Source: Elsinoe ampelina (Eukaryota). From it: a DNA stretch of 20,000 nt. The position numbers were made by a program, and so were the translations under genes. The DNA is taken from contig ML992501.1 of assembly GCA_010093995.1 (NCBI GenBank), positions 116,250 through 136,249 of the forward strand, given 5' to 3'. Shown here one piece after another: positions 1 through 20,000 of this stretch. The notes under the pieces were generated by a model that searched no databases, had not been told where the DNA came from, and saw only the letters and a list, made by a program, of their open reading frames with translations. Position 1 is the stretch's first letter; each line of letters opens with the position of its first letter.

Positions 1-3286
<3,286 letters not shown>

Positions 3287-3639
3287 TGATCTGTATATAA
3301 TATCAAGAGCACAACTTGTGGTCGCTGTATTTCTAGGCTACCTCCGTCGTATGAATCAATGGCTTGATAGAATTCAATCATGATGTCCGAAATATGCTCA
3401 ATTTTGTTGACTTGTGTGTGGGGAGGAAAAAGGATTAATTACTGCCTAAACTACTAAAATGAGGTAGATTGTAACTACATAAATACTTAACCTAGTGTAC
3501 TAAAAGATAGCTAAATTAAAAGAACTCCTTAATAGCAACAGATTAAGACAATAATTATCTAATTTAATTATAAATTAGTAAAATAGTAAGATAGTGTTTA
3601 GTTTAGCCTTAGGATAAACTAAATTAGAGTCTTCTTAGC

Positions 3640-3845
3640 TAATGCGAGATAGATACGAACTAGATTTAGTTAGGATCTAGTTTAGATTAGTCACGTGATC
3701 TCGGCATTATAGCCCGGGCTTCCGGCCGCTCTGCCCTTAATATTACATGTGCTTTATATACTAGCTTTTCTTCTTCTTCTTCTAAGTCTTAATATCTTAA
3801 TAAATAGACATAATTAACCTCTTATCTTACTAGTTATAATTACTA
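3640..3845 (+). repeat. 5' LTR of element A
   Basis: Aligns without gaps to 16995-17200; by hand count 30 differences in 206 bp, all transitions. Ends TA...TA are compatible with RIP-mutated TG...CA. Confidence 0.92.
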
Positions 3846-3856
3846 TATCGAGACTT
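3846..3856 (+). promoter_or_regulatory. Primer-binding site of element A (probable self-priming type)
   Basis: TATCGAGACTT directly abuts the 5' LTR. Its reverse complement AAGTCTCGATA matches LTR 3784-3794 (AAGTCTTAATA) except for two RIP-type transitions. Confidence 0.65.
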
Positions 3857-3915
3857 TAAAACAACTATAACTAAGCAATAGAGCTATTAAATTATCTAGT
3901 TATTCTACTACTTAT

Positions 3916-5553
3916 ATAACTACTAATAACTACTACTTACGAAGAATTAAAGAATTAAAGAAGAAGCTATTATAACTATAGTTCCTATGTACACTATAAT
4001 AGATCCTTACTACTACTATATAGGTCAATACTATAAATCTTAAAGATATAAGAAGAAGATAATAAGTTAAGTTATAGATAACTCTTAAAGAAAGTAGGCT
4101 ACTAGCTAAAAATTTTAATATTCTCTTTATTATATATTAATGTTTTACACTGTTTTATTTACGACTAACTATACTAAGCATAGCTCGATCTAACTATAGC
4201 AACGAAGAGTACTACTAAAGTAAGCTACCTTAACCTATTCTTAATAATAATAATACTCTTATTTACTCTCTCTACTATAATCTTTTTGCCCTCTCTAATA
4301 CTATACTCCTTAAGAAGCTATAGAAAGAGTATAGTATATAGGCACTAAGAGACGTATTTAACTATATTAAGTCCTTCTATAATAAGTAAACTACATAGGT
4401 AAAAGGCGCTTATACTAATACTCTCTACTATTACTACGAGTTAGATACTACTTAGGCTTAGCTCGGCAACCTCTAATCCGAACTAGATATATCTTAGTTC
4501 TATGCCGATAGTATTACTACCTAAGCTACTCGCTACCTAGACAAAATCTAAGAGCTTAAGGCTAAGGTAAACTAACTAAGAAACAAGATAGAGTATAGTA
4601 TACTAGCCCTTTCTATACGTAGCTCTACCTTATTAGAAAAGATACTAGACTCTACTATCTTTAGTATAGGTATACTAGAGTAGTTCGAGGTCTTTAAGCA
4701 CTAGATAAGGAATAAGATATATATTAATATAGATTATTTCTCTATAAGAGATACCTAGTTTACCTATCTATACTTATGCCTCTCTAGAGAAGCCTATACC
4801 CTTATTATAGACTTAGCTAGTAATAACGTTATTAGCGTTAAAGAGGTCCTTACTCTCCTAGCCTAGCGCTTTAAGAATCCTAACTATAGGGCTACTATAT
4901 ATACTTAGTTTACTAACCTCTTCTAATGTAATAGTATATTTAACTCCTTTATTAGTAAGTTTAATAAGTACGCCCTTTACACTAAGATTGCTAAAGAGAA
5001 GTAGCTATACTAGATCTATTAGAAGATATCTAATAAGCTACGTAATGCTCTAGTTAACTATAACACTAATAACCTTACCGCCTTTATTACTAAGGCCTAC
5101 ACTACTAACTATAACATCTAATAGAATAACCTTATTACTAAGCGTACTTAGGCTTTACGTTCTATACTAGCTATAAGCTACGCCGCTACTATACCTACTT
5201 ATATACCTTATTTTACCTCTATACCTATAGCTTTACTTACCTTCTACTCTATTGCCGGAGGTGCTTTATAGCCTTTCTATCTAGCTCTAGTACTTACCTA
5301 TTACACATGTAGTAAGCCTAGATATATCTCTACTAAGTATATAGCTAGCGCCTTAGAGAAGGCTACTTATACTACTATACGCCCTATGCGTATTAGCGCT
5401 ATAAAAGAGATATAATAGCTCTAGAATTACTTAGCCGAATTAAGCAACTAAGTCGATACTAGTTCGGCTTATAAACTAGATCTAGTTTAGCCTTAGTTTA
5501 ACCCTAAAATAGATTATAAGTCTACTAACCTATCGGGCTAGAGAAATAAGTAG
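3916..5553 (+). pseudogene. gag of element A (RIP-degenerate; start uncertain, alternatives near 4171/4180)
   Basis: CCHC knuckle at 5299-5340 reads tat tac aca tgt agt aag cct aga tat atc tct act aag tat, i.e. (C)YTC(G)KP(G)(H)ISTK(C) after RIP reversal. The frame ends ...(Q)(G)N(E)* at TAG 5551-5553. Confidence 0.7.
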
Positions 5554-8363
5554 CTAGAGGATAAGTTCTATTCTCTAGTAGAATAAGAGCAATTCGAGAT
5601 AGATCTAGAGGTATATAGTTATTAAATAGCGTTATTAGCTACTACATCCCTACTATTATAACTCCTATTACTATTTACGACCCTTATAACTACTCTTATA
5701 CTATTACACTTTAAGCCTTTATCGATACTAGCGCGCTTATTAGCGCTATAGTTAATTATAACATTCTTAATAAGCTAAAGAGCTTTAGCTATCCTATAGC
5801 ACTAGCTAGTTCTATTTAGCTTTAAGCCTATAATAGTGTTCTAATAGAGTAAGTTATATATAGTATTCCCCTTACTACTACTGTTTCTAGTAAGCTAAAT
5901 AACCTTACTACCTTTTATATTATAGATATTAGCCGATTTAATATTATTCTTAGCCTTAGCTAGCTTAAGGCTAATAGAGCTACTATCGACTATAAGTATA
6001 GCCGAGTTATATATAAAGAAGAGTTTTCGCTAACAGTTGTTAAGTAGAAGCTACTATAGCTAATTAAAAGGCTAGAATCTAGATCTAAGCCTAGCTTAGA
6101 TCTAGGAATCTAGCTTAGTAAAGCCGCCGCCCTAGTTTAGAACTAGTTTAGTTCTAGTCTAACTCGTAAACTAAGTTCTAGCTTAGCTACTAAGTTAGGA
6201 CGAACTAGACTATATTAGCTACTAGCTCTTAAGTCGAACTTTAAGCTAAATTAGAGAGAGTTTAAGCTAATCTCCTATAGTACTTAGTTAATATATAAGT
6301 TCTCCTACGTACTTACCTACGTAAGTAACACTAAATAAGAAGAGCTAACTATTACCTTTATTAGTATAGCTGCCTTTATATTAGTAGCTAAATACTAAGA
6401 GAATAAGGTATTTATAATCTTAGTAAAGGATATTAAAGACTACTACTAGATAGCCTCTAAGCTAGAACTAGATTCTATAGTAGTTCTCCTAGAGGAGTTA
6501 TAGAAGTTTACTAATATCTTCTCTAAAGAATAATCTAATATACTTCCTTAGTATCGGCCGGATTTCGACAACTATATTATACTTAAAGATAGTACTAAGC
6601 TACTATATATAGAGCCTTTACGCTACCTATTACTATAAGAACTCGATATAGTAGAATAATTTATCTAAGAATATCTTAATAAAGGCTTTATTATACTAAG
6701 TTCCGCTAGCTATTCCTTACCTATTTTCTTTATTTATAAGCTAGATAGAGAACTTTATCTCTACGTTAACTACTATAGCCTTAATAAGGTAACTAAGTAA
6801 GACGTCTATCCTTTACCTCTTATTAAAGAAACACTTACGTGTATAAGTAAGGCTAAATAGTTTAGTAAGATTAATATCTATTAAGCCTTCTACTGCCTCT
6901 ATAACTCCGTCGATAGTAAAGATCTTACTATATTCTCTATACGCATAAGTAACTTTAAGTAGCTAGTAATACTATTCGGCCTTACTAACGCCTCTATAGT
7001 ATAGTAGAGGTTTATAAATTATAACTTTGTTAATATACTAGAGCGCTTCGTGTTAATCTACCTCGATAATATTCTTATTTATACTAATAGCTCTCGCTAA
7101 GAGTATGCTAAGTATATTAAGCTAGTACTCTAAAGACTCTACGAATTAAGCCTAAATACTAATATTAAGAAGAGCAAGTTCTACCTAATAGAGATAAAGT
7201 ATCTTAGTATTATTATTGGCCGAGATAGAGTTAAAATAGATCTAAAGAAGATAGAAGCTATATAAGTCTAGAAATAGCTAGCTTCTAGTAATACTACTTA
7301 GGTAAGAAGCTTTATTAGTTTCTATAGCTACTATCGCTACTTTATTAAGGGATTTAGTACTATTACTAAGCTACTAAACGATCTTCTTAAGAAGGACACT
7401 ACACTATAGAACAATAAGTATACTACTATATTTAACTATATAAAGTATACTATTATAAGTGTGCTTATCCTTACGTACTTTAATTACTTAAAGTAGATAG
7501 TCCTTAAGACTAACACCTCCGATACTACTACTACTAGAATTCTATTATAATATAATAAGTCTAACGTTCTCTAGCCTATTACCTTTCTTAGTAAATCTAT
7601 AAATAAAGCTAAATATAACTACGCTATCTATAACAAGAAACTACTAGTAATTGTCTAAGCCTTTAAAAAATAAGCCTCTAAGCTTATAAGTACTTAATCT
7701 AATAAGGCTATCTACGTTCTTACTAACTACTAGTCCTTAATATACTTTATAAAGACTTAGAAGCTATTACGCTACTAAGTGCACTAGGCTCTCTACCTTA
7801 TATAGTTTAACTTTAAGATTATATATAGGCCTAGCGCTACTAATAGCAAAGCTAACACGCTTATAAGGAGAAATAGAGACGTACTACGTTTAAAAGAAGA
7901 CCTTAATCTACGCTAGATACTACTACTATATAAGGTGCTAGATTAGCGTATTATTAACAAACTAAATCTAAGTCGTATCTAAACTAGATTACTAATCTAA
8001 GCTAAACTAAGATCTAGTTTAGTATCTAGTTTATAAACTAGTTTACTATCTAGTCTATTATCTATTTTACCTCCTATTTTGCTACCTATATCGGTGCCTA
8101 TTTCGGCTACTAAACTAGGCATCTATATAGTACCTATCTTAGCTATAGAAGAGCCTTTACTCCTTTTCGACGAAGTAGCTAAAGCTAACCTATAAGACCT
8201 TAATTTCGAGATAGTTTATAGTATCTACTATATAATAGAAGCCTTCCTAAAGAGGAAATAGCTACCGTCGACTAATATTACAATTAAAAAGGGAATACTA
8301 TAGGCTAATAGCCGACTAATTATGCCTTTCTCTATAGCTACGAAGGTTATCTAAGAAGTTTAT
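5541..8363 (+). pseudogene. pol of element A, 5' part: protease, reverse transcriptase, RNase H, start of integrase
   Basis: One frame throughout: AFIDT(G)A at 5715-5735, L(C)V(D)Y(R)(G)LN ~6760, (M)(P)FGLTNA ~6970, YLD(D)IL 7059, T(D)(A)S ~7509, IY(D)KELL ~7625, A(D)(A)L ~7851, KVI(Q)EV(H) up to 8363. Confidence 0.9.
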
Positions 8364-8561
8364 TATAATAAAGATAAGATATTAGAGCTAGAAAGACAAG
8401 TATATAGGAGTAGAATAGGTGTTATACTAGTATACCCTCGATTATTGTAAGACTAATCTCTACTCTATCTATTCTATAGGTAAGAAGTGTTTTATCCTTC
8501 TATAGAGAATAGTATCTCTAGAGTAAGCTAGCGTAGTATACTTACTACGTTAGTTCTTATA
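8364..8561 (-). repeat. 3' LTR of element B
   Basis: Direct repeat of 15457-15654, preceded on the - strand by AGAGGGAGAATAAT (PPT). Confidence 0.93.
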
Positions 8562-8575
8562 ATTATTCTCCCTCT
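8562..8575 (-). promoter_or_regulatory. Polypurine tract of element B
   Basis: The - strand reads AGAGGGAGAATAAT directly before the 3' LTR. Confidence 0.8.
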
Positions 8576-9217
8576 TCGAGAGGTATACTCTTACGCCTAT
8601 AAGCCTTAATAAAACCTAGAAAACCTAGTATAGGAGAAAACTAGAAAAGAGTATCTTACTAGTGCCTCTTAGGTATAGCGCACTCTTTACGCGTATAGCG
8701 TACCTATAGTAGCCTATACTATTCTTTATATACTAGATGTAGTAATAACAGTATAATTCTTTATATATAAAATATAGCGCTCTTATATTGTTATTTTTAT
8801 ATATAAGAATCTACCTATTATTATATACTACTACCTATTATTCTCTAGATTAGTCTTAGCTTAGAGCTAGATATATATTCTTCTCTTCTTCTTCTCTTCT
8901 TCTTTTCTTCTTTATAATACTTCCTTCGCGTAAGTATTCTACTTAATACTAGCTCTATACTTATATAAGTCTAATACTATACTAGTAATCTATTTTAGGT
9001 ACTATATAGTATAGACTAGGTCTTACTAGCCTAAGGGCTAGTAGAGGAGACTTAGTATATACGCTAAGCCTATACTACTATAGATCTAGCTATTAGGCTT
9101 GTCTATTTAGTTATTTATTTACTAACCTAGTATAGCACCTACGTAGCAATTTTTTTCCCTTTATTATTCTAGCTCTACGCTAGCTTACCTTCTATATACT
9201 TATATACTTTAATAACT

Positions 9218-10103
9218 ATAGCCCCTAAAGTTCCTAAGGAGTAAGTATTATATATAGTACTTACGCTACGCCGGCGCTAACCTTTTATAGACCTTATAAG
9301 AGCGATTTTACTAACTAGAACTAGTACTCTATACTATACTTATACTATACTATTGCTATCGATAAGCACCTCTAGCTTAAAGATAGTACACTTTCTATTA
9401 AGGATTCTCTCTACTAGATTACTAAGGCTAAGGCTACCTACTATAATCGTTATAGTTATAGTAATAAATACTACTACTAGGTATACTCTATACCTATACT
9501 ACGCCTACTTTATACTAACCTTAGTAGCCTACTAAGCTCGACTTTAAGAATTAAGTTACTACTAAGAAGCTCTAGGATAAATACTTTACTACGTATATGC
9601 TACTCTATAATAATACTACTACTCCTAAGAAGAATATTATTCTTCTAAAGCGCTAGATTACTACCTATACTAACTATATACGCGAGAAGGCTAGCGCTAA
9701 GCGTATATAGAGCAAGTCTAATGCTAAGGGCAAGAGTAAGGTAGTTAATAAGAGTAATAGTAATAGTATAACTTCTTTACGCTATAATAGCGCTATTACT
9801 ATACCCTTTACCTCTAAAGTTAATACTAAGTAGCTAGTAAAAGCGCTATGCCTAGGTATAATTAGTAATACTAGCTTTATACTTAAGGCTTTAGCTAATT
9901 ATATAAGTCTAGAAGTGTGCCTCTATAACGCTTAAGCTACGCTAACTTCCTTATAGGTAGTTACTAAGAATAAGTAAGCCGCTACTATATAGGTAATTAA
10001 TAACGCTATAAGGGCGCTAACTAGGTATATTAATAGTGTTAAGAAGAATAATAAGGATAAGACTAAGGTAGATAATATAGATAGTTAAGGTAGAGAGGGC
10101 TAG
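9218..10103 (+). pseudogene. Antisense, intron-containing accessory gene inside element B (exons 9218-9240, 9291-9480, 9528-~10103); unknown product, putatively Cys-rich N-terminus and acidic C-terminus
   Basis: Intron 1 (9241-9290) is GTAAGT...GCTAAC...TTTTATAG. Intron 2 (9481-9527) is GTATAC...TACTAAC...TAG. Removing both joins three different frames into one, starting ATA GCC CCT AAA (inferred ATG, MAPK...). Internal stops are all TAA/TAG, consistent with RIP of CAA/CAG/TGG. Confidence 0.75.
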
Positions 10104-10229
10104 GGCACTATATCTATACTATGCCCCCTTCGCTTTAGTATAATTCTATAGTTTTTGCTACGCTAGTGTTTTTTCTATATAAGCTAATAATACTCTAAGC
10201 TAACCTAGTACTACGCCTAGATACTCTTT

Positions 10230-13200
10230 ACTTTAAAATTTGTACCTTTAACTTATTAATTCTAAGTATGTCTAGAGTATTTAGCTAGCGCTATACTTAT
10301 ACTAAGCTACCTTATATTTATATAGTAATTCCTTAGCGTTTATAAGGTTTTTTACTAGCTCCTATATACTTTCTTCTATAGGGTAACTCTACTACTTTAC
10401 TAGGTAGTATAGCGCCTTTAGAGTGCTAGTATAGCTCTTGCCGAGGATATATTTAATAATATATTCTTCTTACTCTTCTACCTCTAGAGGTAGTAGGTAT
10501 ATACTCTTACTACATCTATATAGCTCTAGTAGCGTAACGTTAAAGACGTTATAGATTAGCTTTATTTTGTCTAGTAAGTATAGCTTATATACCTATATAC
10601 TAATTTGTTATATAATTATAAAGGGGCTAATATACTTAGCTAATAGCTTATAGCTAGGTCTAGCGCTATAAAGGTTCTTAGTGCTAAGTATAACCTCGTC
10701 GCTATTATAGAAGACTTTTACTTATTAACCTCTATTATAGACTAGTACTTAGTCTTTCTATACTTTATATAGGTGTCGGGTAAGCTCTATATACGTTTTA
10801 GTAATAGATTATACTTAGTTATTAACTAACGAGTTATACGCTAGCATGTAGCTAGGTAGTACTAGCGCCTTAATATTATTAAGTAGGCATATCTCCTACG
10901 TAAATAAGAACTATACTAGCGTAGCGTATAGTAACACTTAATATATGTTATTATACACGAATTACGCCTACTTAACCTAGTATAGCTAGTCTATCTAGTA
11001 ATAGTCGATAAAGTAGCGTAGGTACTACTCTAGCGTCTAGTTTTGCCTTTCGGTTTAGCTATCTATCTATAGATAGAAACTAGTACTAAGCTTATATTAC
11101 GCCTTCTAGCGCTAGTATAGCGCACTCTAGAATTTGCTTATAAAGATAGACTCTCTATCTAAGACTAGTGTCTTTAGCGTTCTAAATAATATTATAATAT
11201 CTATTTTAAATAGATTAGTAAAGTCTCTAGTATTAAGCTTAGTCGACGTTAGCGTATAGATACTAAACTTAGATAAGTAATAGATATATACGATAATCGC
11301 GTCTATAATAACGCTAGGCCGGAGCTCTACTAGGGGTAAGCTAGTAATAAAATTAAGCAACTAGTGTTATAAGGCCTTAAGTATAAGTAGGATTAGTAAG
11401 AGTTATAGGAGACTATAAGGCTTATACTATATTACCTTATGCCTTTAGTAGCTATCGTAGTGCTCGATATACACTTTCGTAGCGACGGATATACCTAGCT
11501 ACTAGTACTTTCTCCTTATATTAAGGTAGGTCTTTATATAGCTAAAGTAACTCCCTAAGGAGTTGTTATAATTATGCTATATAAGCTCTACTCTTAAGGT
11601 AGTTTCTTCTAGGATATATACCCTATCTCTATTCCGGAGTAAGCTATTACTAGATAGGCTCTACTTAGGGGTAGTACTATTACTAGTCGAGGTTCTCTCT
11701 TTTAGAAGTTTCTATTTCTTACTATAAGTAAAGGTGTCTCTTTACTATACTATATAGATAAGGTCCCGGAGCAATATAGAAGTAAAAGAGATATACGTAG
11801 TCTTATCTACTAGTACTTACGTAGCGTAGAGGCGTATAATCTACTAACTCTAGTCTAAAATTATAATAGGCTTCTTACTAGAGGTGTCCCGGAGTTATAT
11901 AGGTATTATACTATCTTTATGCCCTTAGCTCTCTATTATTTCCTAGGTAAGTAGTAGTATATCCTAGGATGCTAGAGTAGACATATATCGTTCTAATTTA
12001 ACATTGCTAGTTAGGCTTAGAGAGAGATTTATATAAGTACTTTCTAGGCGCTACTCTTCTTACTTTAGAGGCTCTAACTCTTCTTAGTATAGCTATAGCG
12101 CTCCTAAGGTAATAGGTAGACTTATAGGCGCTATTCTAGAGATATACTAGAATTGTATAAGCGCGTTATATTAGGGAGTAGTTTAAGGCACATAAGCTAT
12201 ACTAGCTTTATTACTATCTTCCTAGGCTCTACTAGCCTTAGGTTTCTTATCTATAATAGATATAGGTATAACTCCTTTACTTCGCGTTTATAATACTTTC
12301 TCTAAGAGAGAGACTAATATATAGTACTCTTCCTATATATCTTCTTTATACTTATAGTAGTTAGGCCTACGTAATAGGCTATTAGCTAGGTTAGTCTTTC
12401 TACTATAGTACTAGATAATAATATTAAACTATGCTAGTACCTCGGCGTAGCAGGCCTAGCGCTATAAAAGCTTCTTAGTAGTTAGGAAATACCTAAGGTT
12501 ATTATAGTTAGAAAGGACTTTAATTAGAGTAGTAGCGCTAAGTAGGTACTAGCGCTAGTACTATACTACTTCTATAATAGCGAGAAGCTCTTTATCGTAG
12601 GTAGTATAGTTTAGTTCTATACCTTATAGCTTCTAGGACTAGAACGCTATAGAGTACTAGTATTATATAGAGGTATTACTTTTGTTTTACTAGAAGATTA
12701 CTCTAGAGAGTATAAAATCTAAAGCGTTAGTCTCGAGCTAGAGAGGCTTACCTAATAAAAAGTAGCGTAGTATAGGCACTTATATAAAGGTAGCTTTAAG
12801 CCTATTAAAGGCCTATACTACGTTATTACTCTATAGAAATAGGCCTACTTACTTCCCTTAGACTAACTCTTACGTAAGTATAGTTAGTAGTAGCGCTATA
12901 TAGGAGAAGCTTTTAATAAATCAATAGTAGAAATTAGTAAATCCAAGAAAGGTTTATAACTTCTTAAGGCTAGTAGAGGTAGGCTAGTTAGCGACGGCTT
13001 ATACCCGGGGCTACTCTATCGCGACGCTATTACTACTAATAACATAGCTTAGGAATACTACCTATATTACCTTAAAGATATACTTCTTTAGTTTTATATA
13101 GAGGCTATTCTTACGTAGGTAGTCTAGTACGCTCCTAATAGCCTAGTAATACTCTTACTTATTACTAGCGTAGATTAGAATATTATCTAGGTACATAATA

Positions 13201-15419
13201 TAGTAGTAGTCTACTAAGCTACTTAAGTACTAATATATATAAGTCTAGAACGTAGCTAGGGCATTAGTAAGGCTAAAAGGTATAATAGTATATTTAAAGT
13301 AGCTATAGTAATAGTAGAACGCTATCTTCTATTTATCGCTATACTAGATATATACTCTATAGTAGGTATCTATAAGGTCTAGCTTACTAAATAAGTATAC
13401 GCCCTTAATATAATTAAGTATCTTAGCAATTAGGGGCAAGGAGTAATAGTTCTTAATAGTAACATTATTTAGCCTATAATAGTTAATATATAGGCGTAGT
13501 AAACTATCCTTCTTAGGAACAAATAAAATAGAAAACCCTATAGAGCTAGTACTATACTAGAGTTAACCTATCGCTAAGCTATTATCTATATACTCTTAAA
13601 GTACCTAAAGCTCCTTCTTACCAAGGGGGTAGATAGGTCCCTAGAGTAGCTATTTCCTCTCTTTAATATCGATAGAGTAAGTAAAATTGTTACTTAGTAG
13701 CGCTATTACTCTGCTCTTATTAAAAACGTCTATATAGTTATTAAGCTAGTATAGTAGAGTCGGGGCGCTAGGTTTGTCTCGGCGTATATATACTAGATAG
13801 AGCTAAGTATTAGGCTAATTTAGCTCCTAGAAGAAGAAGAGTATATCTAGGATCGACACCTATATAGCGCTAGTATAATGCCTCTATATACTAGCGCTCT
13901 ACTAAATCTTAGAGTCGTAGGACAATAGCTATAGTAGGCCTAATACAAGATTATAACTAGTTATATTAACGCTTTTAAACCGCTAGCGCGACGCCTACGT
14001 TATTCCCTTACTATTCTTAATAGTAAAGGCTAACTTAGTATATCTATAGATAGTTAATTCGTGTTTATCTAAGCCGCGTACCTAGTATACTACTAGAGAG
14101 TCGATAGTGATATAATAGCGTATAGTAAAATACTAGCTAATAAAGTTACTATCGGCGCTACTATCTATTAGAGCTACTTCTTCGATAGGGCCTTTAGGTA
14201 GGTTAACTATAATATCGGCACGAATTTAGTATATATTCTATATCGCGCTAGAGCTACTTAAGATTAGTAAATGTAAGGACACTATCCGTTTTAAAGAGTT
14301 TTTCTAGAGACAGTTTAGCACTTAATAGTCTAGGCTCTTATAGATGTTATAAGGGTAAGTAGCGCTAAGTTAAGGAGCTATAGAGGTAGTATTAGCGCTA
14401 CTCTACTAGTCCTTTTAGCCCTTATAGTCTTTATTATAGTAAGGCCTTTTAGTAAAAGTATTAGTCTTCTCTCTAGCGTTATACTTATACTACCCCTATA
14501 TAGAGTTAGAGTAGCCTAGTAGATTCTACTCTAAATAGGATAGATATACTAGAAGTTCTACCTTAATTAGAGGTAGATTCCCCTAACGGAGTACTTTCGA
14601 GTATAGCTCCGGCGTAGTATAGGTAATAAGCTATATATAGTAGGCATTGTTCGGGAGTAGCGCTATCTTAATATAGAACTCGTAACTATCGAGGAACATA
14701 TAGAAATTAGTAATTAACTATTCTCTACGCTAGTATAACGTAAAGAACTTTACTACGTAGCTATTACTATAGTTTTTAGAACTCTAGGCTTAGTCCTAAA
14801 GCTAGAACTATATTAGGCTCTATAAGGGTATAACGCTAGTGCTCTTAGCATATAAGTCCTAATTATAGCTAAGCTAACCTTTTAAGTAGCTAGTAGCTAT
14901 ATAGTACTAAGTAACTTCTTTAAAGTAGATATTTAGTACTATCTTAAAGACGTTATTATACGTGTATATAAATTCCTTAACTCTTACTATAATAGTAGAC
15001 TCTAAGGCCTTAGGGTAGCGTAAGTTTAGTATATACTCTCTTACGATTTGTAGGTTTATTAGGCAAATATTATTAGGTCGTACGTTGTTAAAACAACTAT
15101 ATAGCACTAGCGCTATAACTAGGGAGCAACTACTAAGTATATTCTTAAGCTAAGCGATATAAGTAAGAAGCGCTTTATATATAGTATTATTTCCTATGTC
15201 GGCTATACTTTCTATAGAAGCTATATTAGCGTAGTATAGTCTTAGCGCTAGCTCTTCCCCGGCCTAGCGATCTTTAATAGGAGTTATCTCTAGAGTTATA
15301 GCTAATTTAGTAAATGTCTTACTAATAGCTAAGCTATTAGAGAGTTATCTATACTAGTGCTACTCTAGCGGTAGTTAGTTATTTCGCTAGCGCTAAGTAT
15401 AGAGTACTATCTTGTCTAT
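10230..15419 (-). pseudogene. gag-pol polyprotein of element B (single frame, RIP-degenerate; ends approximate)
   Basis: All in one - frame: gag (ORF-track 14907..15107), knuckle (C)NI(C)KS(P)D(H)(W)xxNC 14310-14351, ALIDS(G)AD ~14150-14174, (M)PF(G)LTNA(P)ATF(Q) ~13250-13285, YLD(D)ILIY ~13190, LET(D)A(S)DF ~12725, DKELLAI ~12590, (D)FIT(G)LP ~11345, F(H)(P)(Q)(T)D(G)(Q)TE ~11065, YI(G)PF ~10630, chromodomain EYII(E)xIL...YLVK(W)(Q)(G)YPxEES(T)(W)E(P)xxNL 10343-10466. Confidence 0.9.
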
Positions 15420-15456
15420 ATAGCTCTATCTAATAGAATATAAGAGAGATTAGAAT

Positions 15457-15654
15457 TATAATAAAGATAGAATATTAGAGCTAGAAAGACAAGTATATAA
15501 GGGTAGAACAGGTATTATACTAGTATACTCTCGATTGTCGTAAGACTAATCTCTACTCTATCTATTCTATAGGCGAGGAGTGTTTTATTCTCCTATAGAG
15601 AATAGTATCTCTAGAGTAAGCTAGCGTAGCGTACTTACTATGTTAGTTCTTACA
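15457..15654 (-). repeat. 5' LTR of element B
   Basis: Starts TGTAAGAAC on the - strand; gap-free match to 8364-8561 with 18 differences by hand count, all transitions. Confidence 0.93.
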
Positions 15655-15659
15655 TTTAT

Positions 15660-16949
15660 ACATCGAAGAATTATATACACGTAGGAGCTACTAAGACGGC
15701 CGCTATAATAAAGTTTACTTTCTATATCCCTAGATGTAATAGTAACGTTAAGAGATTCGTCGCTAACTATTATAACTATAAGCGTTTAAAGGCTTATTAT
15801 AGTTTACTAGCCGGCCTCTTATCGCTATTACCTATTTTAGAAAGGCCTTAGTAATATATTACTATAGACTTCGTTACTAGCCTACCCTTAGTAGATAGCT
15901 ATAACGTAGTACTATATGTTATAGATTGCTTATCTAAGGAATAATACTTAATTTCTTACTTCTCTAGAGAAGAAGACACCTTAGCGTTTAAGACTACTAA
16001 GTTATTATTCTTCTATGTTTAGAGACTACACGGCCTACTAGATAGTATTACCTTCGACTATAGCCCTTAGTTCGTTAGCGACGTATAGAAAAGGCTCTAC
16101 TAAATTCTAAAGATTACTACTAAACTATCTACTATAGGGCACCTATAAATAGATAGCTAATTAGAGGTTATAAATTGTAAGTTTAAGTGAATTATTTATT
16201 TATATACTACACGTTTTAGCAATTAGACCCTTATTCTACTAGTAGTAAAGTTCTCTACTAATACTAGCCTATTAGAAAGTACTAAGCTATTACTATTTAA
16301 GGTTACTAGGGGATATAAGTCTAGACTAAGCTTCTAGCCCCCTTCTAATACACTATTAACAAGAGCTAAGCTAAATAAGGCCGACATTTACGCCCTTACT
16401 AAGCAACTAGAAGAAGTACTAGCTATTGCTAAGGCTAACCTCGCTATTGCCTAATTACGAATAGTAGAGTAAGCTAATAGACACCGCTAGCTAATAGAGT
16501 TTAAGGTAGGCGATTTAGTTTAGCTATTAATAAAGAACCTTTAGCTATAGAGTAATATAAAGCTACTACTAAAGTATATTAGTCCCTATAAGATCCTTAA
16601 GAAACAATTACTACTAGTATATAAGCTTAATCTACTAGCTATACTATAAAGTATCTACCTAGTATTCTACGCTAACCTTCTTACTAAGCACCTAAATAAC
16701 TCTCTACTAGGCTAAGCCTTTAATAAACTACCTCCGGTAGAAGTCGATAGTAAAGAGAAATACGAGGTAGACGATATAATTAATATATATATACTATAAG
16801 GGAAGCTAGTTACTTATATAAGCTAGAAGAGCTATCTAGAGAATCTTACCTAGTAGCTAATTAACAATCTTAAAGGAGTAGCTAACGTGCTATATAACTA
16901 TCTAGACCCTTATATAGATAAGCTAAGGCCGGAATAGATTAATAAATAA
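15660..16949 (+). pseudogene. pol of element A, 3' part: integrase (HHCC, DDE core, GPY/F) and chromodomain
   Basis: Continues in frame after removing element B and one TSD copy: H(A)GATKT...N(C)xx(C), IT(M)DFVT(G)LP 15858, IT(S)D(R)(G)P(Q)F ~16047, H(P)(Q)(T)D(G)(Q)(S)E ~16140, YI(G)PYKI ~16575, YEVDDII...S(W)K(G)Y(P)E(D)xT(W) 16761-16853. Confidence 0.9.
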
Positions 16950-16980
16950 TATATAATAGCGTTTAAGAGTAAATACACTT

Positions 16981-16994
16981 AAGAGAGAGAGTAG
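16981..16994 (+). promoter_or_regulatory. Polypurine tract of element A
   Basis: AAGAGAGAGAGTAG immediately precedes the 3' LTR. Confidence 0.8.
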
Positions 16995-17200
16995 TAATAT
17001 AAGATAGATACGAACTAGATTTAGTTAGGATCTAGTTTAGATTAGTTACGTAATCTTAGTATCGTAGCCTAGGCTTCTAGCTACTTCGCTCTCGATATTA
17101 CGTATGCTTTGTATACTAGCTTTTCTTCTTCTTCTTCTAAGTCTTAATATCTTAACGAATAGACGTAATTAACCTCTTATCTTACTAGTCGTAATTATTA
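16995..17200 (+). repeat. 3' LTR of element A
   Basis: Direct repeat of 3640-3845. Confidence 0.92.
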
Positions 17201-20000
17201 GTACTCTAGCTTATATCTTAGTTAATACACTTCTTTACTAAGTAGCTATAACTCTATAATAGCTAGTTAGTAGACTACTAACTCGAGGGATAGCTATTAT
17301 AAGAAGGTCTTATACCTCCTAGGTAGTAATAATTTAGTAAATCTATTAGCTAGTGTATCTACTAATAGTATCTATATAACTAAGATAGAACTAGATAGAT
17401 CTCTAGCTTAATTAATCTCTTGTTTTAGCTAATAATAATAAATATTAACATAGTAAAGATATATATTTAGCTTCTTAATTAGAGTAGTAATAAGACTAAT
17501 AGTTTACTAATTATTACACTAAATACTAATATATTTAAGGGGATAGATAGAGGCTATTAGCCTCCTCTACTATATAGCTTACTTAGTAGTCTCTATAAGA
17601 GTAAGTAGCTTAGTCTCTATAGTTAATATTATAACTATTAGTTACTTTATAGCCTTCTAGTTAATTAATCCTTAAAACATCTTAAAGAGATAGTCTTAAA
17701 GGCTCTTTCTTATTAGGTAGCTACTAAAGCTAGCATCTAATAAAGCTTAAAAGATTAGTAGTAGCATTAAGCTATTAAAGGTAAGAGCTAAATTCTTAGT
17801 TTTATAGAGATATTAGATTACTCTATTTACTATTCTCTAGTAAGTTAGTAATAGATTTATTAGATGCTCTAACAATCTAGAAGTAGCAAAGGCTATATTA
17901 GGCCTTATAATAACTACTATAAAGTTAATAGATTCTACCTTTTACTAATATAGGTAGATCTCTTATAGTAATACTTAGCCTTTATAAGGTTAGAGTATCT
18001 TAATTAGTAGTAGTATTAACACTAGCCTTATTAGTTCTATAATAAACTTACTATATATCTATTATATATACTAGGCTTAGCTAAGCTAGAGTCTCTTTAT
18101 TAGTCTATCCCTTATAACTTAGATAGCTAGAAACTAGCTTAGATCTTTAAGTATCTTTATCTTATATTTAGTATAGAGAGCTATAATAACAATATTAGCT
18201 TTCTTCTTATGCTTCTTAAGATATATAATAGTAATATTATCTACAAAGAAGAAAATTATTACTTTAGGTATTATCTAGAGGTATAGAGCCTTAGAGGCTT
18301 AAGTAAATCTAATACTCTTTAGAGTAGTAGTAAATTTAGTATACTAGAGAGCTAGGGCTTACTTTAGGCTATATAGTGCTTTATTAAGTAATAGAATTGC
18401 CTCTAATAGAGTAATACTAGAATAGTCCTTTATAAGATCCTCTACTACTAGCTTAAATCTAGTAGAGATAGTATAGTAGGTAGTCTTATTAATAGGACTA
18501 TTAATATAGGTATTAATAACATCTATCTAGATAGTTTCTATATCTTTATAAGTAAGTAATGCTATAAGTATTCTAAAGATCTTAGCTACTAGAGTTACTA
18601 TATAAGTCTTAGATTCTATTAATTAGAGATTATCTCTTATATAGACTTTTACTTTATACTTTATAATCTCTCCTTTATTATTAACTTTATAGATAAATAC
18701 CTATATTAAAGAGATAGGCTTACTAGTAGCTTAAGCTACTAGTATAATAGTCTATATATATCTTAAGTATAAAGTAAGTAATTTAACCTTTATAGCCTCT
18801 TAAAATTGCTTCTTATAAGAATAAGCCTTAAGTTCTTTAATATTAGCTAGTAGTAGTAGAAGATTGTCCCTTAATTCTAGCTTAGGCTAAGTTAGTATTA
18901 TTAATAGATAAGCATTAAAGGCTTAGTAATATCTAGGAGCCTTATTAGTTTATATAAGAGTAGTAATATATACTTACCTTCTTAGTTTTCTTATTCTTCT
19001 TATTATAAAAATATATTTAGAAAGAAAATTAGCTAACCTTATAGTAATTCTTTAAGGGGGTTACTTAGGCTAAGCTTTAACTACCTCTTTATTCTAAACT
19101 TCTATTTTATCTCCTTTAGCTTTATCTCCTCCTAGTAGTAGAGGAGATAGCTATACTACTATAGATAGTAGTAAGGCTAGAGTATTAAAGAACTATTTAT
19201 TTAGTAAAGATTCCTAGATCTAAGCTAGGTTTAGATCTAGAATAGCCTTATTTAATTAGTCTAATAGAGGTAGTAACTAATCTAGTATAACAGGGTAACT
19301 CTTATCTAGCTACTAAGATAGGCTTAGCCCTTAATCTAGATTACTCTAACTTAGAGTCTAAGATAGTATCTAGTTTAGCTACTAAACTAGATTCTAAACT
19401 AGATTCTAANNNNNNNNNNNNNNNNNNNNNNNNNNNNNNNNNNNNNNNNNNNNNNNNNNNNNNNNNNNNNNNNNNNNNNNNNNNNNNNNNNNNNNNNNNN
19501 NNNNNNNNNNNNNNNNNNNNNNNNNNNNNNNNNNNNNNNNNNNNNNNNNNNNNNNNNNNNNNNNNNNNNNNNNNNNNNNNNNNNNNNNNNNNNNTTCTAA
19601 TAACCTTCTTAGAGGCTAGTATAAAGATCCTAAAGATGTTAGTTAAGTTATAGCTAACTAAATAGCTAATATAAGCCCTTAGTATAAGCTTATTACTACT
19701 TATAATAAGCTTATCTAAAGTATAAGCTTTATATCTAAGTAGCTTAAGATAAGCAACTAATAGAGAGCATCTATAAACTAGCTTAAAAGGAGTCTTCTAG
19801 TCTAGCTTTTTAAGAGGTATTCTATTAATTAGATAGGCTACTAATCTATATAGTTTAGAGTATAATTCTCTTAGTAGATTAGTAAAGATAGTAATTGCCC
19901 TTACTCTCCTTAATAGTATAGCTTCTATTCTTTTATTATAACTATTCTAAGCTTAAGTATAAGGAGTAGATAGCTTATAATAGATTCCTTTACTATCTAG
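17201..20000 (-). mobile_element. Ty1/Copia LTR retrotransposon 'C' (RIP-inactivated, 3' half: integrase C-terminus, RT, RNase H, start of 3' LTR)
   Basis: On the - strand: S(A)PYT(Q)A(Q)N(G)xx(E)R and RA(H)I(G)YLV(G)Y(D)(S)TNIFRI (19595-20000, integrase); VFIYK...KYK(A)KV(C)(V)R(G)(D)L(Q) ~18620-18700; NKALY(G)LK(Q)A(P)AL(W)Y ~18340-18385; FFVD(D)I 18233-18250; C(D)N(Q)(Q)TI...(H)V(D)I(H)(H)(H)(W)LKQE...A(D)(G)FTK ~17335-17520. IN-RT-RH order is diagnostic of Copia. Confidence 0.9.
19410..19594. other. Assembly gap (185 N) in the integrase-RT linker of element C
   Basis: Run of N characters. Confidence 0.99.

Follow-up and report, generated by a model that had tools for sequence, protein, structure and literature searches.

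The window, that is, the whole 20,000-nt stretch of Elsinoe ampelina DNA that was analyzed, probably holds a RIP-inactivated copy of an accessory gene that one lineage of chromoviral Ty3/gypsy elements in fungi carries in antisense orientation, in the interval from pol to the 3′ LTR. The gene runs from 9218 to about 10100 on the + strand, between the pol gene (− strand, ending near 10330) and the 3′ LTR (8364–8561) of a gypsy element, B. An earlier sequence-only reading had proposed an antisense, intron-containing accessory gene of B, and this is borne out by intron signals, by codon periodicity, and by intact relatives of the element. The copy in the window makes no protein, since its spliced frame contains 5 stops in exon 2 and 10 in exon 3, all of them TAG or TAA. 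The coordinates of all features are collected in Table 1.

The GC content falls in a sharp step, from about 51% at 1–3290 to about 28%–30% from 3500 on. Positions 1–3290 hold an intact host gene, which we take from its translation to be SMC5-like, and about 200 bp separate its end from the RIP-damaged block. The composite RIP index is 1.8–2.3 from 3500 on and about 2.0 for element B. This element is inserted in the integrase zinc-binding region of a second gypsy element, A; its two 198-bp LTRs are about 91% identical, and it is flanked by the 5-bp target site duplication (TSD) TTTAT at 8359–8363 and 15655–15659. The pol of B gives Pfam matches to RVT_1 (3.6e-11), RT_RNaseH (1e-15), SH3_Tf2-1 (1e-9), and Integrase_H2C2 (0.047), and is broken by 112 stops in 1,323 codons. 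In its PR-RT-RH-IN order, LTRs, 5-bp TSD, and polypurine tract, B fits a Ty3/gypsy chromovirus. The damaged pol yields no Chromo match; it aligns up to residue 1322 with P0006, a chromodomain-bearing (PF00385) relative, the C terminus of the one matching the end of the other. From the end of pol to the 3′ LTR, B has 1.75 kb, and this interval holds the antisense gene. Element A has no room for such a gene, as there is only a short stretch between its integrase end and its 3′ LTR. The region at 17200–20000 appears to be a further element, mutated more heavily, with CG almost absent, and probably on the − strand. It has a 34-bp inverted match to element A at 6078–6111, and an assembly gap lies within it at 19410–19594.

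Table 1. Nested elements of the window and parts of the antisense gene of element B
Feature	Position	Strand	Basis or remark
Element A, outer gypsy element	LTRs near 3640–3845 and 16995–17200	+	LTRs ~86% identical
Element B, full-length Ty3/gypsy LTR retrotransposon, RIP-mutated	8364..15654	−	LTR pair, TSD, RIP index
3′ LTR of element B	8364..8561	−	LTR pair
Purine-rich tract (polypurine tract) of element B, directly inside 3′ LTR	~8563–8578	−	Read from sequence
Putative coding exon 1	9218..9240	+	Frame joins exon 2; first codon ATA
Intron 1, 50 nt, GTAAGT ... GCTAAC ... TAG	9241..9290	+	Sequence signals
Exon 2, six TAY codons, predicted dead long-loop six-cysteine domain	9291..9480	+	5 in-frame TAG stops
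Intron 2, phase 0, 44 or 47 nt (tandem AG, both in frame)	9481..9527 (acceptor 9524/9527)	+	Two codons after sixth TAY
Exon 3, ~190 codons	9528..10103	+	Periodicity; stop either TAA 10086 or TAG 10101
pol of element B (RT, RNase H, integrase, SH3), one frame	10331..14300	−	Pfam
5′ LTR of element B	15457..15654	−	LTR pair

Each of the two introns has a GT donor, a CTAAC-type branch site, and an AG acceptor, and their removal preserves the frame. With the 47-nt form of intron 2, the next codon is of Pro type, as it is in two intact relatives, L005 and L012. The ATA that opens exon 1 may be a mutated start codon. Intron-like stretches are also seen upstream of this putative start, at ~8930–8998 (by eye) and at 9055–9130, and are possibly 5′ UTR introns; what we call exon 2 may therefore be a later exon of the transcript.

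Intact counterparts of the gene were found in metagenomic DNA. Through intact pol relatives, 79 loci were fetched (the best 79 of at least 592 matches), and 39 of them, each with at least 800 nt behind pol, were scored; in a few circularized contigs, the start of the contig was taken as the end of pol. An unbroken six-cysteine motif lies behind pol on the antisense strand in 13 of the 39 loci, and on the sense strand in none of the 39. Nine of these genes have a short first loop, and four (L005, L006, L012, and L013) have a long one. In all four long-loop loci, a GT follows two codons after the sixth cysteine, exactly where the window has its donor at 9481. The first loop is 16 residues long in L005, 14 in L006, and 21 or 26 in L012, and with a clade range of 14–26 residues the 21-residue loop of the window is not an error. 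The six-cysteine motif is absent in the basal relatives L001, L009, and L039, for which 867–2,244 nt behind pol were scanned. At L015, L024, L049, L052, L073, L076, and L077, only antisense half motifs (C-x2-C-x6-C) lie behind pol, two per locus in some; their sequences suggest six-cysteine genes with an intron interrupting the domain.

The closest intact relative of B by pol is L005, a 7.15-kb element whose antisense gene carries C-x2-C-x16-C-x9-C-x2-C-x6-C. In a tree of RT plus integrase (58 sequences; 23 loci were too short in coverage to be included), B joins L005 and P0006 in a group with a support of 0.98, on a very long branch and with the alignment projected on P0006. P0006 also shows the top RIP-compatible identity to the pol of B among 124 pol proteins (0.64; the next, among the 60 listed, is 0.61). 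From the third cysteine to the intron, the window and L005 align without gaps and have in common an A-K-A stretch, an Arg before the fifth cysteine, and N-K before the sixth; this supports the six-cysteine reading made earlier from the sequence, in the same register. When all 1,625 GT sites were compared by a donor-anchored RIP-aware score, 9481 ranked first, and its ranks for the four individual queries (gapped) were 1, 1, 2, and 23, the intron anchor and gap costs having been chosen after the match was seen. An ungapped comparison of the last 27 codons with L005 ranked the site first of the 1,625, and 8th of the 1,625 without the cysteine positions. In an unanchored RIP-aware alignment, the site came third for L005, second for L006, and outside the top six for L012 and L013. 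Similarity flanking the first C-x2-C pair is weak.

Partly mutated members of the L012 family (P0130, P0131, and P0138) carry Cys-to-Tyr, Asp-to-Asn, and Ala-to-Thr or Ala-to-Ile changes in the six-cysteine domain. A homologue search with the long-loop alignment returned seven proteins, all close to the four seeds, and the viral collection searched contained no relative of P0001. P0127, a 286-aa protein from Stemphylium lycopersici that is annotated as hypothetical, is what an L013-type antisense gene yields after splicing. Such transposon genes hence figure in public proteomes under the label of host "hypothetical proteins."

The motif of the Zn2Cys6 family is CysX2CysX6CysX5–16CysX2CysX6–8Cys (PMC2447501). 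The sequence-only reading had called the spacing in the window Zn2Cys6-like, which is correct for the second half, x9-x2-x6, but not for the first loop, which, as that reading itself stated, is x21 and not x6. We could not place the domain in the GAL4/Zn2Cys6 family itself: the x6 loop is missing, and the Pfam Zn_clus (PF00172) search that had been proposed as a check gave no match for any of the four intact long-loop exons at E values up to 10. Exon 2 of the window had no Pfam match at E up to 5. A PDB search with the long-loop profile found no zinc-cluster structure, its sole match being ribosomal uS14 (E = 0.22). AlphaFold2 models were too poor for use (pLDDT of 59 for the L005 domain and of 25–36 over the P0127 domain).

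Less likely than the preferred reading given below, and yet the strongest of the alternatives, is a real, zinc-binding gene product that is not a Gal4-like binuclear DNA reader. Its site would be mononuclear or of mixed Cys/His type, or it would be a module for protein interactions in particle assembly, nuclear import, integration targeting, or the blocking of host silencing. Some of the TAY codons would then not encode ligands, or further ones (9439 and 9469) would. Such a product is consistent with the variable loops of the relatives, where the second loop spans 8–22 residues in addition to the 14–26 of the first, and with the seventh cysteine of L012 and a third cysteine that is not invariant in one alignment. 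Codon 9439 may, moreover, be TGC in some copies of B: 9440 A>G is seen without 9439 T>C among the variants listed (see below), at a codon that had been read as Arg. The long- and short-loop profiles barely match, having in common a 14-column half motif only, at 5% probability, and the two types are therefore not to be taken as one origin. Plant antisense ORF products have likewise been proposed to be retroviral-accessory-like (PMC7264820). Speaking against such a product, both C-x2-C pairs and the last cysteine are invariant in all four long-loop exons, and the short-loop relatives have canonical spacing at the same position, although their top PDB matches, to Ppr1, Lac9, Leu3, Gal4, and Put3, are weak (E = 0.11–0.9).

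The part of the gene behind the domain is less well conserved. When the last exon was compared by phmmer with 1.84 billion representatives, there were no matches, and acceptor-anchored ranks of exon 3 were 37, 118, and 838 of 1,950, the likeness to L012 (37 of 1,950) being weak. Exon 3 has a Lys-rich patch near 9700–9745 and a charged end of D/E/N/K codons at 10041–10085 (D/E/N/K fraction, 0.6); the tail of P0127 is helical in prediction. Of 17 AAR codons calibrated in pol, only 3 trace back to Glu, so that an acidic tail of the antisense gene product is plausible and no firmer than that.

The six TAC or TAT codons on which the cysteine reading is built are present at 9337, 9346, 9412, 9442, 9451, and 9472, in one frame and with the spacing x2-x21-x9-x2-x6. 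The bare pattern is at chance level. TAY and TGY make up 9%–12% of codons in the RIP block; the exact spacing recurs at 9482 in another frame, and in a scan of six frames the canonical GAL4 spacing turned up twice and a loose one 25 times. The caveat attached to the original reading, that TAY may derive from Tyr, His, or Arg, was right by calibration on the pol of B: at conserved columns, 46 TAY codons stand for 17 Tyr, 12 His, 11 Arg, 5 Cys, and 1 Asp. In the same calibration, all five conserved pol cysteines read TAY (5/5), so that the absence of TGY from the window copy is expected.

At 3500–19400, TG before a purine is almost gone, and CTGY survives in about 4% and other TGY in about 25%–50% of cases. 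By preceding base, survival of TG, estimated against the host gene, is about 4% after C, 25% after A or T, and 50% after G. Four of the six TAY codons follow C; for the other two, at 9337 and 9451, the context is one that spares TG at about a quarter of sites.

Sister copies of B were followed as variant contigs on 9190–9620 in two DNA runs (X1 and X2) of one sample, with 40 of 55 variants listed. There were 147 and 234 variant contigs in the two runs, covering all 29 bins of the interval; the B family hence has many copies. Differences between the copies are mostly CG versus TA, which makes CpG a strong second mutation target. Codon 9343 reads CGC in about 55%–64% of sister-copy depth and also matches L005, in agreement with its earlier assignment to Arg. 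Among the 40 of 55 variants listed, none falls within the six codons and none gives TGY there, and at most 2 (X1) or 3 (X2) further A>G changes are possible there; at 9337 and 9451, the sister-copy data lean slightly against Cys. The cysteine reading thus rests on homology to the intact relatives, not on the sister copies. A register one codon upstream (9439/9448/9469) was rejected: the intron follows two codons after 9472, as in the relatives, and 9448 is an unmutated CGT. In most sister copies, though, 9448 is not kept: it shows C>T in about 96% of sister-copy depth and no change at 9449 among the variants listed, and would there read TGT beside the fifth TAY, which this rejection does not fully explain.

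That the gene is real while its cysteine pattern is an illusion of RIP, most TAY codons having been Tyr, His, or Arg, we consider quite improbable. The low share of Cys among the calibrated pol codons (5/46), the chance recurrence of the spacing at 9482, and the lack of a TGY survivor among the 40 of 55 sister-copy variants listed would all fit such an illusion. It does not account for the agreement with the nearest intact relative in register, in the x9, x2, and x6 loops, in intron position, and in non-cysteine residues, and survivors are in any case rare at the four codons preceded by C. We conclude that all six TAY codons were, with good probability, cysteines, and that for the last four the case is slightly better.

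The reading frame was examined by R/Y codon periodicity against dinucleotide shuffles, a measure that is unaltered by C-to-T and G-to-A changes and is therefore RIP-proof. In exon 2, it selects the frame of the sequence-only reading (79 versus 61.9, p = 0.0016). In exon 3, the frame selected is the spliced one (253 versus 189, p = 0.0002); an upstream control gave p = 0.23. Because this periodicity is strand-symmetric, the assignment to the + strand rests on the introns and the relatives. In the selected frame of exon 2, the fraction of third-position pyrimidines (Y3) is 0.75, and of 24 codons whose second base is a pyrimidine, 20 also have one in third position. A stop-free frame at 9281–9535 was rejected as the true gene, being the +1 shadow of this bias. 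It is thus highly improbable that the selected frame holds no protein gene and that the interval is non-coding 3′ sequence, a source of antisense RNA only, or the 84-codon stop-free frame, for although other stop-free frames of at least 70 aa in the RIP block fall in element coding regions and RNY periodicity leaves the strand unfixed, that frame is a shadow, the + strand has two GT-AG introns whose removal maintains the frame, and intact homologous genes occupy the same place.

On our preferred reading, an accessory gene for a six-cysteine protein, an antisense promoter in or beside the 3′ LTR of a live element would drive a spliced mRNA. The product would be a protein of ~260 residues with a short basic N terminus, the domain C-x2-C-x21-C-x9-C-x2-C-x6-C, and a charged, helical tail that evolves fast. 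Judging from the motif, the six cysteines would bind two Zn ions. Gal4-type factors use the 6-residue first loop to read DNA; any DNA recognition by the present protein would differ from that of Gal4, since a long first loop replaces the short one. Nucleic-acid binding, transactivation, and anti-silencing, as proposed in the sequence-only reading, are candidate activities of the six-cysteine protein. The motif and the analogy with plant antisense ORFs (PMC7264820) would fit a nuclear role. By the same analogy, the likeliest function, which we put forward tentatively, may be binding to the element's own LTR or to chromatin, regulating its transcription.

A broader and more doubtful proposal is that one lineage of chromoviruses in fungi has a trans-acting regulator of its own. 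The core of this protein would be a long-loop six-cysteine zinc domain of an undescribed type, with a variable insert of 14–26 residues in place of the fixed 6-residue recognition loop of Gal4, and it would act on the LTR or on host silencing. If true, these elements would count as "complex" retrotransposons, equipped with an accessory gene like those of retroviruses. Finding that the extra ORF is a spliced gene and encodes a conserved six-cysteine domain yields a testable hypothesis, in which the element uses a zinc protein of its own to control itself or to oppose host silencing, and the intact long-loop genes L005, L006, L012, and P0127 are available for testing.

What extra antisense ORFs do in LTR retrotransposons is still an open matter (PMC7264820). 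Their arrangement is already in print, for the Boty gene brtn and for plant antisense ORFs; the novelty lies in the long-loop subtype and the constant position of its intron. In the literature searched, mostly at the level of abstracts, we found no zinc-cluster product for fungal antisense ORFs, a motif that the original brtn paper may describe.

Like Gal4, Ppr1, Put3, and Leu3, the predicted protein has six cysteines, two C-x2-C pairs, and an x9-x2-x6 half followed by a helical or charged region; unlike them, it has a long first loop (21 residues here, 14–26 in relatives) and is encoded by a small gene borne on a transposable element. The short-loop antisense genes (L014, L030, L032, L038, L040, L047, L064, L066, and L071), which belong to fungal chromoviral elements and are Zn2Cys6-like/coiled-coil, resemble the window gene in position, strand, and six cysteines. 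They differ in their x6 first loops (x8 in L064) and in lacking a GT two codons after the sixth cysteine, and their Zn_clus matches are weak (for L066, E = 6.4e-4 and 20.2 bits, with a cut-off of 21).

The DUF3716 family has a long-loop cysteine pattern. No long-loop exon matched PF12511 at E up to 10, and an Atlas search gave DUF3716 clusters as low-score leads (0.78 and 0.77, 28% of members); with the L005 domain and P0127, it gave only unnamed Ascomycota clusters, below 0.9. Members of DUF3716 (PF12511) such as REP9-1 and REP9-2 of a Zymoseptoria class II transposon are, like the present product, small fungal proteins of unknown function borne on transposable elements (PMC8232023), but the setting of REP9-1 and REP9-2 is a DNA transposon (PMC8232023).

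The plant aORF-3R genes (maize Grande gene23, rice RIRE2, Silene Retand, and PvRetro13) are also antisense ORFs between pol and the 3′ LTR and have been proposed to encode regulators; GENE23 is nuclear, and the gene has its own promoter (PMC7264820). The window gene differs from them in its fungal host and in its six-cysteine domain, which the relevant passages of PMC7264820 do not give for the plant ORFs. The closest parallel in arrangement among fungi is brtn, carried as an additional antisense gene by Boty-like (BcGypsy1) elements in Botrytis cinerea and Sclerotinia (PMC7264820, PMC8365987), for which the passages on it in these two sources give no cysteine motif; unlike brtn, the copy in the window is RIP-dead. 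The function of brtn is unknown (PMC7264820), and the likeness considered here is that of arrangement: in both cases, a fungal Ty3/gypsy element carries an extra gene antisense to gag-pol in the interval that separates pol from the 3′ LTR (PMC7264820).
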